Positions 59,439 to 63,838 of a stretch of DNA of 64,000 nt are shown in pieces. The notes under the pieces are model-generated. The model did not search any database. It saw only the letters and a list, made by a program, of their open reading frames with translations, and was not told the DNA's origin. Position 1 is the first letter of the stretch; every line of letters begins with the position of its first letter. The stretch comes from Trueperaceae bacterium (GTDB lineage: Bacteria > Deinococcota > Deinococci > Deinococcales > Trueperaceae): contig OZ243927.1 in the NCBI GenBank assembly GCA_965213925.1, forward strand, positions 384,001 through 448,000, read 5' to 3'. A program made the translations under genes and the position numbers.

Positions 59439-59485
59439 CTCGAGCTTCACAATACGACGCTCAATCTTAATGAAGATTGTGGTGC

Positions 59486-59514
59486 TTGACACCTTATGTG
59501 AGGTTTGCTACACT
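59486..59514 (+). promoter_or_regulatory. Sigma70 promoter of the Y RNA/tRNA-rsr-rtcB transcript
   Basis: TTGACA-17 nt-TACACT with extended -10 TG. The expected start near 59521 is 2 nt before the first Y RNA. Confidence 0.85.
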
Positions 59515-59522
59515 TCTAATTC

Positions 59523-59590
59523 GCGGACCGAAGAGACTTCGTTACCTGACTTTCCCTCAGACCTAACCCGAAGTCTCACCACTCGTCCGC
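59523..59590 (+). ncRNA. Y RNA 1 (minimal, no tRNA domain)
   Basis: GCGGAC-C-GA pairs with UC-GUCCGC (bulged C); AGACUUCG/CGAAGUCU upper stem; GUUACC motif; pyrimidine-rich loop. Confidence 0.75.
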
Positions 59591-59640
59591 TAATTTCCAA
59601 GAAAGGGAGACACTCACCGCTTTGTGAGGTCGTGGACGCT

Positions 59641-59772
59641 ATGAATAAACATTTTATACAACCCGAACACGGCTCCATCCTGAGCGCCGAGCCCACCTGG
59701 TTTTTCCAGCGTGCCACCTGGTTTTTCCAGCGTGCCACCTGGTTTTTCCAGCGTGATAGTCGGCGAGCGTAA
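59641..59772 (+). CDS. Candidate 43-aa leader peptide with (TWFFQR)x3
   Basis: ATG with GAGGT ~10 nt upstream; contains three 21-bp in-frame repeats. Confidence 0.35.
   Translation: MNKHFIQPEHGSILSAEPTWFFQRATWFFQRATWFFQRDSRRA
59693..59755 (+). repeat. Three perfect tandem 21-bp repeats
   Basis: CCACCTGGTTTTTCCAGCGTG at 59693, 59714 and 59735. Confidence 0.95.
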
Positions 59773-59851: not shown

Positions 59852-59988
59852 AGACGGGCCGAAGACGTTTCGTTATCTGGATCATCGTGTTGCGGGTTCG
59901 AATCCCGTCTAGCGTCAGCTAGTAGCTCAAACGGTTAGAGCATATGATGGAGCCTAGCTCCTACCGAAATGTCGTCTCTTGCCCGTTT
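59852..59988 (+). ncRNA. Y RNA 2, classical YrlA topology
   Basis: Ro stem ACGGGC-C-GA/UUGCCCGU; GUUAUC; T arm GCGGG-UUCGAAU-CCCGU; closed acceptor CUAGC/GCUAG; D arm GCUC/GAGC; AUCAU/AUGAU connector. Confidence 0.85.
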
Positions 59989-60054: not shown

Positions 60055-60144
60055 GATGGACTGACGCAGTTTGGTTATCTGGATTCACAAGTTCGACTCT
60101 TGACCTAGCGCAAGCTAGCATCCAAACTACGTTCCTTGTCCATC
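60055..60144 (+). ncRNA. Y RNA 3 (T arm plus closed acceptor, no D arm; bulged U)
   Basis: GAUGGAC-U-GA/UUGUCCAUC; GUUAUC; CAAG-UUCGACU-CUUG; CUAGC-GCAA-GCUAG. Confidence 0.75.
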
Positions 60145-60156
60145 TCTACTAGACCT

Positions 60157-60232
60157 GGTGCCATCGTCTAGCGGTCTAGGACTCGAGCCTTTCACGTTCG
60201 CAACAGGGGTTCAAATCCCCTTGGCATCACCA
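60157..60232 (+). tRNA. tRNA-Glu (UUC)
   Basis: Full cloverleaf GGTGCCA/TGGCATC, anticodon loop CT-TTC-AC, T loop TTCAAAT, encoded ACCA. Confidence 0.92.
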
Positions 60233-60243
60233 ACCTAATTTAC

Positions 60244-60414
60244 GATGTGGGCCGAAGCGTGTCCGTTATCGACTTCTAATCGGCAGGTCGCGGGTTCGAC
60301 TCCCGCCCAGCACCCCCAACATGGTGCTGGTAGCTCAGTGGCAGAGCAGCTCGAGCACCACTTGGTTTGGTAGAACCCCAGTGCTCGTTCGGACATTCAC
60401 CCCTTGCCTACATC
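60244..60414 (+). ncRNA. Y RNA 4, permuted tRNA domain with Arg (UCU) anticodon loop
   Basis: GAUGUGGGC-C-GA/UUGCCUACAUC; UCGA-CUUCUAA-UCGG; T arm; CCAGCACC/GGUGCUGG acceptor; D arm. Confidence 0.85.
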
Positions 60415-60419
60415 TTTTC

Positions 60420-60493
60420 AGCGCCATCGTCTAACGGCAAGATTCCTGGTTCTTACCCAGGGGATGAAGGTTCAAATCCTTCTGGCGCTACCA
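60420..60493 (+). tRNA. tRNA with CUU (Lys) anticodon and Glu-like body
   Basis: AGCGCCA/TGGCGCT acceptor, CCTGG-TTCTTAC-CCAGG anticodon arm, 4-nt variable region, encoded ACCA. Confidence 0.88.
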
Positions 60494-60494
60494 C

Positions 60495-60622
60495 AACTAA
60501 GCCGAAGGGCGTTCGTTATCGGTCAGAGCCCCTGAAAAGGGAGGACGCTGGTTCAACTCCAGCCTAGCCGCAAGGCTCAGTAGCTCAGGGAAACAACGCG
60601 AATGTCCACCCCTTGCCTAGTT
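60495..60622 (+). ncRNA. Y RNA 5, permuted tRNA domain with Phe (GAA) anticodon loop
   Basis: AACUAAGC-C-GA/UUGCCUAGUU; GUUAUC; CCC-CUGAAAA-GGG; GCUGG-UUCAACU-CCAGC; AGCC-GCAA-GGCU; UAGCUCAG. Confidence 0.8.
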
Positions 60623-60635
60623 TTATCTCTATCAT

Positions 60636-60783
60636 AGGCGAGCCGATTGGGTTCCGTTATCAGCCTGTCACGCTGGCGGTGCAGGTTCGATTCCTGCCTA
60701 GCCCTCGGGTCAGTCGTCTAAACGGTTAGGACACCAAGTCGGAAGCGATTCCGACATACCGAAGCCCGCCCACTTGCTCGCTT
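60636..60783 (+). ncRNA. Y RNA 6, permuted tRNA domain with Asp (GUC) anticodon loop
   Basis: AGGCGAGC-C-GA/UUGCUCGCUU; GUUAUC; CAGC-CUGUCAC-GCUG; GCAGG-UUCGAUU-CCUGC; D arm GUCU...GGAC; extra GCGA-tetraloop hairpin. Confidence 0.85.
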
Positions 60784-60970
60784 TATCTTACGCGGATAGG
60801 TCGCTGAGTTCTTCTCAAATCCTTTCACCTGTCTGCTTTATCGACGCAAGCTCCAGCTCTTCTGAGCTTGTATCACGCAGATATCATCCCTGAACGTGCG
60901 TGCTAGAGATTGCTTCTTCGGCTGAGCGCGTTTGTGACCAGATGCTACCTGCTTGAAGGAGGTGCTCGAA

Positions 60971-62563
60971 ATGCAAAAGTTCCACAAGCTCTTCTCACCC
61001 ACTAAAACGGCGCAAAACCGCCCGCTGGATAAATCGCAAATCAAGAACAGTGCGGGCGGATACGTCTGGGCGCTGGACCCGTGGAAGAGACTCGAGCGCT
61101 TCCTCATCTTGGGGACGGAGGGCGGCACGTTTTACGTCCGCGAAGCGCCCCTTACAGTGGAGAACGCCGAAAACGTCGTTAAGCTCCTCACAGAAGACGG
61201 CGTCCGTGTCGTCAACCGAGTTGCGGAGGTCAGCATGCAAGGTCGCGCTCACAAGAATGACCCAGCGCTCTTCGTCCTGGCGCTCGCATTCACGGTAGGT
61301 GACGTGGACACAAAGCGTGCAGCGGAAGCGGCGCTGCCTAAGGTCGCGCGTACTGGCACGCACCTCTTCACCTTCATGACCTACGTGAGCGAGATGCGCG
61401 GCTGGGGTCGTGTGCTGCGCCGTGCGGTAGCGGGTTGGTACGCGAGCAAAGATGTATCGGCGCTCGCTTATGGAGTCACTAAGTACGCCCAGCGCGGCGG
61501 CTGGACGCACCGCGACGCCCTACGTTTGGCGCACCCTAAGACGAATGACGCCGAGCGCGACGCGCTGTACCGTTACGTTACGGGGCATAGCGACAAGTTG
61601 AAGGAGGTGAGCGGCGAATGGGTTGACTACTTAAAGGCAGTCGAAGCGGTAAAGGTCGAAACGAACGTGCAAGCGGTCGTGGACGCCATCACGCGCTATA
61701 ACCTGCCGAGAGAGGTCATCCCTACCGAAATGCTTCGCAACAGTCAAGTCTGGGCGGCACTCCTAGCGCGTATGCCTATGACCGCGACGATTCGCAACCT
61801 CGCGACGATGACGCGCGTCGGCTTGCTGACACCTATGAGTGAAGCGTCAGAGGTCATCGCGGAACGCATCAAGAACGAAAAGGCGCTCCGCAAGGCTCGC
61901 GTCCACCCCATCGCCATCCTCGCCGCGCTGATGACCTACAGCGCAGGGCGCGGCGCAAGAGGTAAGGGTGTGTGGGAACCCGTGCAAGAGGTCGTGAACG
62001 CACTCGACACTGCGTTTTACCGCGCGTTCGAGAACGTCGTGCCGACGAACAAGCGCATCCTCATGGGGCTGGACGTATCCGGCTCGATGACCTGGGGTGA
62101 GGTGGGCGGCGTCCCTGGACTCACGCCCCGCGTCGCAAGTGCGGCACTCGCACTCGTCACGGCTTGGGCGGAGCCCAAGCACACGTTCATGGCGTTCTCG
62201 CACGAACTCGTGCCGGTCAAGATTTCGCCGCGTCAACGGCTGGACGACGTGGTGAAGCGCCTGGACGCTCTACCCTTCGGCGGGACGGACACCTCGCTGC
62301 CGATGCGTTACGCGGCGCAAAAGGGACTCGAGGTTGACGCCTTCGTCGTCCTGACCGACAACGAGACTTGGTACGGCAAGCAGCACCCCGCCGAAGCGTT
62401 GCGCGAGTACCGCCGCAAGACGGGTATCCCCGCCAAGCTCATCGTGGTCGGGATGCTCGGCAACCGCTTCACGATTGCGGACCCAAACGACGCTGGCATG
62501 TTAGATGTGGTCGGGTTCAGCACGGATACGCCGACGGTTATCGCGGATTTCATTCGCGAGTGA
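60971..62563 (+). CDS. rsr: Ro60-related TROVE domain RNA-binding protein
   Basis: NSAGGY, RFLILGTEGGTFY, VARTGTHLF, KY.QR.GWTHRD, vWA MIDAS DVSGSM, TDNETW; RBS AAGGAGG. Confidence 0.95.
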   Translation: MQKFHKLFSPTKTAQNRPLDKSQIKNSAGGYVWALDPWKRLERFLILGTEGGTFYVREAPLTVENAENVVKLLTEDGVRVVNRVAEVSMQGRAHKNDPALFVLALAFTVGDVDTKRAAEAALPKVARTGTHLFTFMTYVSEMRGWGRVLRRAVAGWYASKDVSALAYGVTKYAQRGGWTHRDALRLAHPKTNDAERDALYRYVTGHSDKLKEVSGEWVDYLKAVEAVKVETNVQAVVDAITRYNLPREVIPTEMLRNSQVWAALLARMPMTATIRNLATMTRVGLLTPMSEASEVIAERIKNEKALRKARVHPIAILAALMTYSAGRGARGKGVWEPVQEVVNALDTAFYRAFENVVPTNKRILMGLDVSGSMTWGEVGGVPGLTPRVASAALALVTAWAEPKHTFMAFSHELVPVKISPRQRLDDVVKRLDALPFGGTDTSLPMRYAAQKGLEVDAFVVLTDNETWYGKQHPAEALREYRRKTGIPAKLIVVGMLGNRFTIADPNDAGMLDVVGFSTDTPTVIADFIRE

Positions 62564-62620: not shown

Positions 62621-63838
62621 ATGGAATTGACGAAAAACATTTTCGGTCAACACGATGAAAAGACCTTGAAGCAGCTCGAGGACGTAGCGACGAGGGCTGA
62701 TAGAGTCGCCCTCATGTCAGACGGACACTTGGGCTACGTGATGCCCATCGGCGGCGTTGCTGCTTATGACAATAAAGTATCTGTCGCAGGCGTCGGCTTC
62801 GATATTGCGTGCGGGAACGCAGCCATCAAGACGAACTTGACCTTGGAACAACTCGAGCCCAACCTCACCACCCTCGCTGACGAAATCGCCGAGATCATCT
62901 CGTTTGGCGTTGGACGCAAAAACACCTCGGACGACGCGCCTGTGAATGACCCGCTCTTTGAGGACGCCGCTTGGGAAGTTGTCCCCACCAAAAAGGGCGT
63001 GCGCCAGCGTCTTTTAGACAAAGCGCGTAACCAGCTTGGCACGGTGGGCTCGGGCAATCACTACGTGGACGTCTTCGCGGACGAGAAGGGCGTGATTTGG
63101 GTCGGGGTGCATTTTGGCTCTCGCGGTTTCGGTCACACCGTCGCCTCCACCTTCATGGCGCTCCATCAGGGCGGCAAGTGGGGCGATAAGGGTAAGGAGA
63201 GCGAGGCACTTCTCAGCTTAGACGACGAGTTGGGCAAGGACTACTGGGCACTCATGACGCTCGCGGGGCGCTACGCCTACGTCGGGCGCGAGTGGGTCGC
63301 GCGTAAAGTCGTGGAGATTTTTGGGGGGACAGAGCAGGAACTCGTCCACAACCACCACAACTACGCCTGGAAAGAGGTGCATGACGGGCGTGAACTCGTC
63401 GTCGTGCGTAAAGGGGCGACGCCCGCTTTCCCTAGTCAAAAAGGCTTCGTCGGCGGCAGCATGGGCGACAACGCCGTCATTTTACAAGGTCGTGCGGATG
63501 CGGACGACGCAACCAAAGAACAACAAGCGTCAGCGCTCTACTCCACCGTTCACGGCGCAGGTCGCGTGATGAGCCGCACGCAGGCGGCGGGTAAGTGGGA
63601 CTATAAGCGCAAAGTCCGCAAGACTGAGGGGCTAATTTCAACAGAGATGATGCACGATTGGCTCGCCGAGAAAGGGGTCATCTTGCGCGGCGGCGGCTTG
63701 GACGAAGCGCCGCAGGCGTACCGCAGGTTGCCGGGCGTGTTGGCGTCGCAAGGCGCAACGGTTGAGGTCTTGCATACGCTCACGCCGCTTATCGTGGTGA
63801 TGGCAGGGGCGAACGAGTTTGATCCGTATAAGGATTGA
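62621..63838 (+). CDS. rtcB: RtcB family RNA ligase
   Basis: DGHLGY, GFDIACGN, GSGNHY, HFGSRG, HNHHN, HGAGR. Confidence 0.95.
   Translation: MELTKNIFGQHDEKTLKQLEDVATRADRVALMSDGHLGYVMPIGGVAAYDNKVSVAGVGFDIACGNAAIKTNLTLEQLEPNLTTLADEIAEIISFGVGRKNTSDDAPVNDPLFEDAAWEVVPTKKGVRQRLLDKARNQLGTVGSGNHYVDVFADEKGVIWVGVHFGSRGFGHTVASTFMALHQGGKWGDKGKESEALLSLDDELGKDYWALMTLAGRYAYVGREWVARKVVEIFGGTEQELVHNHHNYAWKEVHDGRELVVVRKGATPAFPSQKGFVGGSMGDNAVILQGRADADDATKEQQASALYSTVHGAGRVMSRTQAAGKWDYKRKVRKTEGLISTEMMHDWLAEKGVILRGGGLDEAPQAYRRLPGVLASQGATVEVLHTLTPLIVVMAGANEFDPYKD

Follow-up and report, generated by a model that had tools for sequence, protein, structure and literature searches.

Bacterial Y RNAs carry a tRNA-like module whose partner and purpose have been an open question since 2014. 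The 64,000-nt stretch of a Trueperaceae genome analyzed here (contig OZ243927.1, positions 384,001 to 448,000, called the window below) raises this question in a more specific form: do some of the Y RNAs encoded beside rsr, the gene of the Ro60 ortholog, present an anticodon arm, and if so, to what? The genes concerned form a co-oriented Y RNA/tRNA cluster on the + strand at 59.5-60.8 kb, ahead of rsr and then rtcB, in which six Y RNA units (U0 to U5) were counted by reading and folding the sequence, with genuine tRNA-Glu and tRNA-Lys genes interspersed. We consider it probable that two of these units, U3 and U5, are members of a subclass of YrlA-type RNAs that occurs widely and carries a near-complete, circularly permuted and non-chargeable tRNA mimic that would serve as a competitor or bait tethered to Rsr. 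The proposal starts from sequence anatomy, conservation, enrichment and loop composition as reported below, from which we infer folding in vivo, binding by Rsr and any partner.

Hairpins preceding the T arm in U3 and U5

U3 (60246..60408, + strand) is a Y RNA with a complete tRNA-like cloverleaf and matches with 111 bits our covariance model R1, which was built without anticodon-arm pairs. In this unit GUUAU leads into a hairpin, CGA / CUUCUAA / UCG (60270..60282, loop 60273-60279), equivalent to tRNA positions 29-41 and closed by the pairs C60270-G60282, G60271-C60281 and A60272-U60280, with a possible U60269-G60283 below them. Then follow GC (60283..60284, positions 42-43), the five nucleotides AGGUC, a T arm (60290-60306), a loop-closed acceptor stem of 7-8 bp (60307-60330), U8-A9 with a D arm (60331-60347), an A and a second GC (60349-60350, positions 27-28). 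We propose that the two GC dinucleotides pair with each other, which would give two trans and three cis pairs and rebuild a 5-bp anticodon stem. The Y stem, together with an extra hairpin (60352..60387) that comes after position 28 and ahead of the Y stem's 3' strand and is kept in orthologs with differing sequence, appears to be inserted between tRNA positions 28 and 29.

In U5 (60637..60782, + strand; 77 bits with R1), which also has a complete tRNA-like cloverleaf, the loop is closed by five cis pairs, 60660-64 with 60672-76, the outermost being U-G (UCAGC / CUGUCAC / GCUGG, 60660..60676, loop 60665-60671). A 4-nt variable loop separates this hairpin from the T arm (60681-97), which is followed by a CUCG-closed acceptor stem (60698-60713; one mismatch, six pairs only), a D arm (60716-32), an A, a CC and an extra GCGA-capped hairpin (60738-55). 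The CC could substitute for the two outer cis pairs, the outer two G residues then pairing with C60734-C60735. In both units a 7-nt loop with a pyrimidine at position 32, U33 and a purine at position 37 (Y32, U33, R37) caps a stem of 5 bp, if the proposed trans pairs of U3 are counted, with 4-5 nt between this stem and the T stem, and the loop itself lies 10 nt (U3) or 9 nt (U5) before the T stem, which is the position of the anticodon loop in a tRNA.

The order T arm, loop-closed acceptor stem, D arm is found in U1, U3 and U5, and the acceptor strands are joined by loops of 4-10 nt, leaving no free 5' and 3' acceptor ends (CCA end) in the RNAs as encoded. Rfam at gathering thresholds and ARAGORN detected the two genuine tRNAs only and nothing on U1-U5. 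The anticodon-arm plus T-arm part of U5 reaches 25.3 bits with the Rfam tRNA model (RF00005, cut-off 29), and the Rfam YrlA model (RF02553) matches U1 from end to end (59865-59975, 38.9 bits), the T-acceptor-D core of U3 locally (60283-60350, 39.0 bits) and the corresponding core of U5 (60680-60732, 23.9 bits), far below its gathering score of 69 bits.

An earlier note on this DNA had described rsr-linked, YrlA-like RNAs with loop-closed acceptor stems, a description that is borne out here, and had listed three anticodon-like loops in them (Arg UCU in U3, Phe GAA in U4, Asp GUC in U5). Its coordinates and sequences proved exact, GUUAUC precedes each loop, and each is followed in turn by a T arm, an acceptor stem closed by a loop, and sequence of a D arm. 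For U3 and U5 the anticodon-like reading stands, by position, loop features and the enrichment reported below. For U4 it was abandoned: what had been read as the loop CUGAAAA (60532-60538) belongs to a short hairpin, CCCU-GAAA-AGGG (60530..60541, + strand), a 4-bp stem capped by a GNRA tetraloop, in which the pair C60532-G60539 has a probability (P) of 0.98 by ensemble folding. U4 orthologs, present in the loci L001, L002, L003 and L005, carry GNRA tetraloops at the same site (GCAA in L001, L003 and L005, GUAA in L002), so that the Phe loop is best taken as a chance reading.

These loci come from a scan of genome contigs with an alignment of 27 Rsr proteins, which returned 403 candidate stretches, 375 of them confirmed and the best 80 kept; six of these 80 rsr loci are from Trueperaceae or Deinococcota and have the same unit types upstream of rsr. 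U3 orthologs occur in L001, L002, L003 and L005, and in all four the stem CGA/UCG and the flanking GC...GC are unchanged. Their loops read CUUCUAA (window and L001), CUUUUAU (L002) and CUUUUAC (L003 and L005), with positions 32, 33, 34, 36 and 37 fixed and positions 35 and 38 variable. L004 has the U5 loop on a stem with compensatory changes (UCUGC / CUGUCAC / GCAGA).

The hairpin across rsr loci

We surveyed 81 sources (rsr loci) for T arms near rsr with a TTCRA loop and at least 4/5 stem pairs, and retained those with a Y RNA 5' motif 30-46 nt upstream (n = 128, in 62/81 sources). Hairpins with at least three closing pairs were counted on a grid of loop length (3-10) by distance to the T stem (5-15 nt), that is 88 cells, in place of an automatic best-hairpin picker, which proved noisy; as a control, the 30 nt before the T stem were shuffled 300 times. 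The cell of the 7-nt loop located 10 nt from the T stem was the most populated of the 88, with 34/128 units against 9.0 +/- 2.8 in the shuffles (maximum 20), and no cell of any shuffle exceeded 21. The runner-up cells, (8,15) with 25 units, (9,9) with 23 and (6,8) with 22, are partly echoes of the same hairpins. An earlier, stricter set, from which sequences inside ARAGORN calls had been excluded, gave 27/114 against 8.2 +/- 3.1.

Considering distances of 10 or 9 nt, 53 hits were obtained, from which the 11 without GTTA or GGTT just before the hairpin were removed (ten genuine tRNAs with a chance motif and one hit in L036). The resulting hairpin-bearing set consists of 42 units (41 distinct) in 36/81 sources and five phyla, distributed over Gemmatimonadota (15), Chloroflexota (14), Deinococcota (7), Cyanobacteria-related sources (3), Armatimonadota (1) and unnamed ones (2).

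Loop letters played no part in the selection of these units, and the loops nevertheless share a distinct composition among the 41 distinct sequences: C dominates at position 32 (34 loops, with U in 6) and U at position 33 (37 loops), A is usual at position 37 (29 loops, with G in 8), and position 38 is divided mainly between A (21) and C (19). The combination Y32+U33+R37 is present in 35/41 distinct loops versus 6.2% of 4832 hairpins from shuffled sequences. In rsr loci at large, the hairpin is both enriched and conserved. The middle triplet takes 23 different values among the same loops. Gemmatimonadota units share a near-identical scaffold (e.g., GGUUAYC-GA-loop-UCG-AGAGGUC-GCGGGUUCGAAUCCCGC), with the triplet as the main difference, and 23 triplets on largely constant scaffolds point to triplet change under a maintained loop shape. 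G37 accompanies G36 in 6/8 loops and other letters in 2/33 (Fisher 1.6e-4, a value that is not a true probability because the units are related). The three closing pairs also vary coherently across lineages (CGA:UCG, CCA:UGG, UCG:CGA, CGG:CCG, CGC:GCG, CCG:CGG, AGC:GCU and UGC:GCA).

Anticodon arm, variable arm and rival readings

Is this hairpin an anticodon arm, or the long variable arm of a class II tRNA? A class II variable arm is a hairpin inside the variable region, ending 1-3 nt before the T stem. The hairpin described here does not have that placement: 7 nt after a stem of 3 bp, or 4-5 nt after one of 5 bp, separate it from the T stem, as would suit positions 42-48 but not the variable arm of a class II tRNA. 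The last five of these nucleotides look like the variable loop of a class I tRNA: they end in C48 or U48, to which G15 or A15 in the D loop is matched.

The proposed trans pairs provide a further comparison. A search of all sources with R1 gave 255 matches, of which 150 were aligned; rows were kept if they had a strict Y 5' motif, gapless positions 26-48, a complete D stem, at least 5/7 acceptor pairs and a D arm not contributed by a tRNA further downstream, leaving 11 rows (10 distinct). Pair 27:43 is formed in 9/10 distinct rows (G:C four times, C:G five times) and pair 28:42 in 8/10 (C:G four times, U:A three times, U:G once), each changing on both sides, and slid controls gave lower counts (1-6) for 27:43. 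The misses are U5 and L053. U5 counts as a miss because its 4-nt variable loop shifts the register by one column; owing to such a loop, U5 and L045 stand one column out of register in both the MAFFT and the covariance-model alignments. This test seems to back the anticodon-arm placement in a suggestive, not strong, manner. Taken together, the spacing, the 7-nt YU...R loop and the trans pairs 27-28:42-43 argue, at the level of sequence, that the hairpin sits where a tRNA has its anticodon arm.

If it does, the following mechanism can be envisaged. The effector module would comprise the anticodon stem-loop, a variable loop of 4-5 nt, the T arm, the loop-closed acceptor stem and the D arm. With the Y stem held by Rsr and the closed acceptor end blocking charging, an L-shaped module with a U-turn anticodon-like loop would be offered to proteins that read full-length tRNA or the anticodon arm; candidate partners would be anticodon-loop nucleases, modification enzymes and possibly the ribosome. 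The RNA would then act as a tethered competitor or bait, and selection would bear on a generic loop shape (Y32, U33, R37, 7 nt) and not on a fixed triplet. Scaffolds that stay constant, a U-turn signature that is kept and a triplet that is free to vary are more in keeping with such generic-shape selection than with neutral decay or mimicry of a single tRNA.

A number of observations weigh against this proposal, several of them from folding. Single-sequence ensemble folding assigns P ~0.005 to the hairpin of U3, P = 0.000 to the trans pairs of that unit and P ~0.25 to the hairpin of U5. In the minimum free energy (MFE) structure of U3 a competing hairpin, GACUU/AGGUC, forms instead, and a fold constrained to the cloverleaf lies above the MFE by +5.4 kcal/mol for U3 and +6.1 kcal/mol for U5. 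We do not take the MFE failure for U3 to refute the hairpin, given how poorly 3-bp stems inside multiloops are modelled. The GAC/GUC alternative is impossible in the CCA, UCG, CGG or CGC stem variants, which speaks in favor of the anticodon-type hairpin. When un-permuted computationally, U3 is called tRNA-Arg(tct) and U5 tRNA-Asp(gtc) by ARAGORN, and among the 31 hits of the stricter set, 16 could be un-permuted, with ARAGORN calling 10/16. With positions 29-41 shuffled, a tRNA is still called for 192/200 versions of U3, 107/200 of U5 and 171/200 of the L011 unit, and such calls therefore support the rest of the cloverleaf, not the anticodon arm. The 10 rows of the trans-pair comparison come from ~5 lineages, and for 28:42 one of the slid controls reaches the same count as was observed. 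The canonical hairpin is absent from 86/128 Y-type units, ARAGORN tRNA calls enclose 11/42 hairpin units, and the Gemmatimonadota units lacking a D arm permit an unpermuted fold in which the Y 5' strand serves as acceptor strand and D arm. Related paralogs and orthologs make up the units, so that neither the counts nor the Fisher test are independent. Among orthologs, the U3 triplet is UCU in the window and L001 and UUU in L002, L003 and L005; the U5-type stem of L005 bears CUUUCCC, hence UUC with C37 versus GUC in the window; and the arm of the U4 lineage is a tetraloop mini-hairpin. Finally, rtcB is not enriched beside hairpin units (14/31 versus 30/68 loci with enough downstream sequence).

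Much of this can be accommodated if the arm is vestigial, or a structural 'V' strut, derived from tandem or permuted tRNA genes in rsr-linked arrays and without any role in loop mimicry, an explanation that we regard as unlikely. Genuine tRNA genes and large tRNA arrays do lie beside rsr, the D arm of U5 is like that of the neighboring Glu and Lys tRNAs, and a stem-loop that is missing from two-thirds of the units, that gives way to GNRA tetraloops in the U4 lineage and whose triplet differs between orthologs would not look out of place as a relic; it is also called 'less conserved' in excerpts of Chen et al. (2014; PMC4201824). Neutral decay should, however, erode loop signature and triplet equally fast, whereas Y32+U33+R37 persists in 35/41 loops while the triplet has 23 values, and loop length and offset are constant in five phyla. 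The opposite view, in which each loop copies one vulnerable tRNA and is cut in its place, or signals its cutting, to be resealed by the adjacent RtcB, seems to us improbable. It is consistent with the rtcB gene adjoining in the window and with the neighboring tRNA genes of the window and L001-L006, all of which (10/10 by ARAGORN) are Asp, Glu, Gln or Lys. Nucleases of the colicin E5, PrrC and zymocin types attack tRNAs with GUN and Lys/Glu/Gln-type anticodons, and 18/41 distinct loops carry GUN (9) or UUU/CUU/UUC/CUG (9) triplets, counts that are themselves non-independent. An inhibitory role of YrlA toward an anticodon nuclease has been suggested in excerpts of Hughes et al. (2020; PMC7790460), where Salmonella YrlA is left uncleaved by its nuclease, that RNA being loopless. 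Yet decoys tuned to tRNA-Arg or tRNA-Asp as such, as the earlier note had suggested, are argued against by a triplet that is not kept in U3 (UCU/UUU) or in the U5-type unit of L005, the link to rtcB that it drew is not supported by any enrichment, and no nuclease gene was identified in the window.

Two further explanations dispense with a sealed Y RNA mimic altogether. RNase P and 3' processing might open the acceptor loop, as in M. smegmatis YrlA, and yield two-piece tRNA-like RNAs that receive a CCA and are recognized by a synthetase or the ribosome. The U3 acceptor stem of 7-8 bp would suit this, and a CCA is encoded just 3' of the 3' acceptor strand in the U3 orthologs of L001, L003 and L005; its absence from the window and L002 makes it an inconsistent feature, the U5 acceptor stem is mismatched, and no cleavage of Salmonella YrlA or Yrn1 is reported in the excerpts of Chen et al. 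(2014; PMC4201824), so that we hold this scenario to be very improbable. Scarcely credible, in our view, is that the units are degenerate tRNA genes or annotation artefacts, i.e., tandem tRNA junctions that fell near rsr by chance. Dimeric tRNAs can score as YrlA, as the same excerpts warn, 82/150 of the best R1 matches overlap ARAGORN tRNAs, and in Chloroflexota arrays the unit is immediately followed by a genuine tRNA-Ala. In U3 and U5, however, an Rsr-motif 5' strand pairs with a distal 3' strand, the acceptor strands are self-complementary and joined by short loops, no half-tRNA flanks them, and the layout is conserved in orthologs.

The tethered, permuted mimic of generic loop shape is therefore the reading that we carry forward. 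A bolder extension of it, to which we give little credence, would treat the Rsr-linked Y RNAs as diversified displays of non-chargeable anticodon arms, with at least 23 triplets in five phyla and several per locus, serving to bait or sense enzymes that act on anticodon loops, whether by attack or by modification. If this held, translation damage would be coupled to Rsr/PNPase and RtcB responses, and an RNA decoy layer would defend tRNAs. Even in the more restricted form, if many modules hold a maintained anticodon-arm mimic whose triplets are interchangeable, the search for their partner would narrow to ribotoxins, modification enzymes and the decoding site, and loop swaps on the constant scaffold would make simple reagents.

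The cluster, its surroundings and known systems

The remaining units show how differently a Y stem can be combined with a tRNA-like module within one cluster. U1 (59855..59985, + strand; 59.6 bits with R1) has the classic YrlA layout, with T, acceptor and D arms and an extra 3' hairpin, and its MFE fold agrees; it is the only unit with a loopless anticodon stem, made of the 5' strand paired with the 3' strand and continuous with the Rsr-binding stem, where U3 and U5 have a closed hairpin instead. In U4 (60498..60619, + strand; 30.5 bits with R1), the 5' GG-UCA-GAGC pairs with a 3' GCUC (G60526-C60586, P = 0.98 by ensemble folding), and the D stem seems from this model to be made in trans, so that the Y stem would enter through the D loop; these pairs are invariant in orthologs and lack covariation support for that reason. 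One cluster is thus home to three graft points of the Y stem, namely the anticodon stem (U1), positions 28/29 (U3, probably U5) and the D loop (U4, by the folding just described), which bears on the origin of Y RNAs from tRNA genes. U0 (59523..59590, + strand; fold -24.9 kcal/mol, z = -4.81) is a short, YrlB-like stem without a tRNA module, whose 5' strand GACCGAAG contains the CGAAG motif and is followed by GUUACC. U2 (60055..60144, + strand; z = -3.82), with orthologs in L001 and L003, is Y RNA-like in a minimal form, having a T arm and an acceptor hairpin capped by GCAA but lacking a D arm. The Y RNA motifs GNCGAAG and YUAY, described in excerpts of Chen et al. (2014; PMC4201824), are represented as follows in these units: G-N-CGAAG is carried by U0, U1, U3 and U4, U5 has GCCGAUUG with one mismatch, U2 is without it, and UUAUC or UUACC is present in all. 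A weak seventh candidate, again a short Y RNA-like stem without a tRNA module, lies at ~60790-60840 (z = -1.46), in a sequence block that L001-L003 and L005 have also conserved ahead of rsr.

The 3' ends of the units fall 190-1450 nt upstream of the rsr start, i.e., within ~4 kb of it. The rsr gene (60972..62563, + strand) encodes a protein of 530 aa with TROVE (152.8 bits) and Ro60 vWA (212.6 bits) domains, and is followed by the rtcB RNA ligase gene (62621..63838, + strand; PF01139, 229.7 bits). An 85%-identical protein is among the closest Rsr homologs; the closest named relatives are from a Trueperaceae metagenome-assembled genome (72% identity) and a Deinococcota one (67%). Ordinary chromosomal genes flank the cluster (an ABC sugar transporter, a HAD hydrolase and a PfkB kinase). 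A sigma-70-like promoter match, TTGACA-17-TACACT (59486..59514, + strand), stands ahead of it as a consensus match only, since one such site was seen before the cluster versus ~1.1 in shuffles; no terminator-like site was found inside the cluster. Three perfect tandem copies of a 21-nt sequence lie between U0 and U1 (59693-59755), inside a small open reading frame (59470-59772); read in frame with an internal ATG at ~59644 they would encode a heptapeptide three times over, and a regulator-binding repeat is equally possible.

The genuine tRNAs of the cluster, tRNA-Glu (UUC; 60157..60232, + strand, Rfam tRNA 56.4 bits) and tRNA-Lys (CUU; 60420..60493, + strand, 61.2 bits), are both also called by ARAGORN. 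In the Deinococcota loci, the tRNAs interleaved with Y RNAs share an unusual D-arm start, CCAUCGUCUA, and the D arm of U5 is of the same type, which suggests that U5 derives from the local Asp/Glu/Gln/Lys tRNA family. In L001 (5132-5281) and L003 (5501-5651), tRNA-Asp-like and tRNA-Gln-like genes are interrupted in the T loop by an insert of ~75-85 nt. The inserts have conserved ends in common and fold as long hairpins, and joining of the exons would give normal T arms; they are without an Rfam match or an ARAGORN intron call, their motif occurs in these 2/80 loci only, and no copy was found near the window cluster.

Elsewhere, same-strand arrays of 11-29 ARAGORN calls with embedded Y-type units lie directly beside rsr in many Chloroflexota and Cyanobacteria-related loci (L007, L009, L010, L013, L014, L017, L019 and L038; e.g., L009 2364-5572), and the survey in this way links rsr with long tRNA arrays. 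Longimicrobium loci have units with GUC and UCA loops followed by tandem GGGAAUA repeats (L059 5190-5215, L054 5370-5400, L069 5150-5175), with neither a D arm nor a recognizable Y 3' strand. ARAGORN also calls Y-type units that start with the GGGCCG Rsr motif as tRNAs, 12 of which are listed here: L079 5209-5282 (Trp), L028 5467-5544 (Arg), L054 5099-5171 (Ile), L012 3639-3715 (Cys), L055 5530-5597 (Gln), L062 3903-3969 (Ser), L061 5155-5220 (Lys), L060 5249-5319 ('Stop(tta)'), L014 3921-3991 (Met), L077 3723-3794 (Asn), L047 8447-8519 (Asn) and L030 5690-5754 (Tyr). Genome annotations may therefore list Y RNAs as tRNAs or suppressor tRNAs. Such calls (11/42 in the hairpin-bearing set, and the 'stop' of L060 outside it) inflate tRNA and suppressor-tRNA counts in Gemmatimonadota and Chloroflexota genomes.

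How do these RNAs relate to systems already described? Circularly permuted tRNA genes, known from red algae and some archaea, encode the 3' part before the 5' part, with the acceptor ends linked and the outer ends in a helix, and are processed to normal tRNAs by cleavage at a bulge-helix-bulge motif and ligation. U3 and U5 resemble them in the order of the parts, the short linker between the acceptor ends and the helix of the outer ends, but here the outer helix bears an Rsr-binding motif, and we know of no splicing endonuclease in bacteria. The tRNA-like domain of tmRNA and the tRNA-like structure of turnip yellow mosaic virus likewise place an L-shaped tRNA-like fold outside decoding; theirs, in contrast, have free CCA ends and get charged, and in tmRNA the anticodon arm is replaced by SmpB (excerpts of Wang et al., 2018; 10.1101/312249). 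Clustered tRNA genes have been tied to rtcB and stress, as possible sponges for toxin RNases, in the L-array paper (2021; PMC8421152), in which Ro60 and Y RNA have 0 occurrences; those tRNAs, unlike the units described here, are ordinary and chargeable.

Among Y RNAs proper, Deinococcus radiodurans Yrn1 is encoded beside rsr in a Deinococcota genome and, according to the model in excerpts of Chen et al. (2014; PMC4201824), might form an 'anticodon arm' on a stem of 5 bp. Its loop is of 6 nt, however, its T and D arms are opposite in orientation and the D arm is not complete, a closed stem-loop between the two arms occupies the anticodon position, and it was judged to have evolved independently. 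The closest relative is YrlA (RF02553; Salmonella Typhimurium YrlA, PDB 6CU1), to which the window units are linked by adjacency to rsr (and rtcB), the GNCGAAG 5' strand, YUAY, the succession of T arm, loop-closed acceptor stem and D arm, and the full-length match of U1. They differ from it in their low scores with the Rfam model and, in U3 and U5, in the 7-nt-loop hairpin kept at the anticodon position and the extra 3' hairpin; in the solved YrlA structure the anticodon stem runs on into the Rsr-binding stem and the RNA "lacks the anticodon loop" (excerpts of Wang et al., 2018; 10.1101/312249). For YrlA, a further stem-loop, the fourth, which lies upstream of the T arm and is said to start at the conserved YUAY, was drawn as 'V' and equated with the variable arm, again according to excerpts of Chen et al. 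(2014; PMC4201824), and the hairpin of U3 and U5 is almost certainly this 'V' stem-loop. For that reason the hairpin itself is not new, and the novelty that the earlier note had supposed is reduced accordingly, as it is by the inhibitor idea of Hughes et al. (2020; PMC7790460, in excerpts); the part that endures is the reading as an anticodon arm, since in the Y RNA literature, supplements being outside the search, we found no text describing an anticodon-like arm or 7-nt YU-NNN-R loops. What sets the hairpin apart from a variable arm is the spacing of 2 + 4-5 nt, the 7-nt YU-NNN-R loop and the pairs 27-28:42-43 that mark a lower anticodon arm. The present analysis thus reinterprets and extends a feature that had already been glimpsed in 2014 and does not describe an entirely new object.

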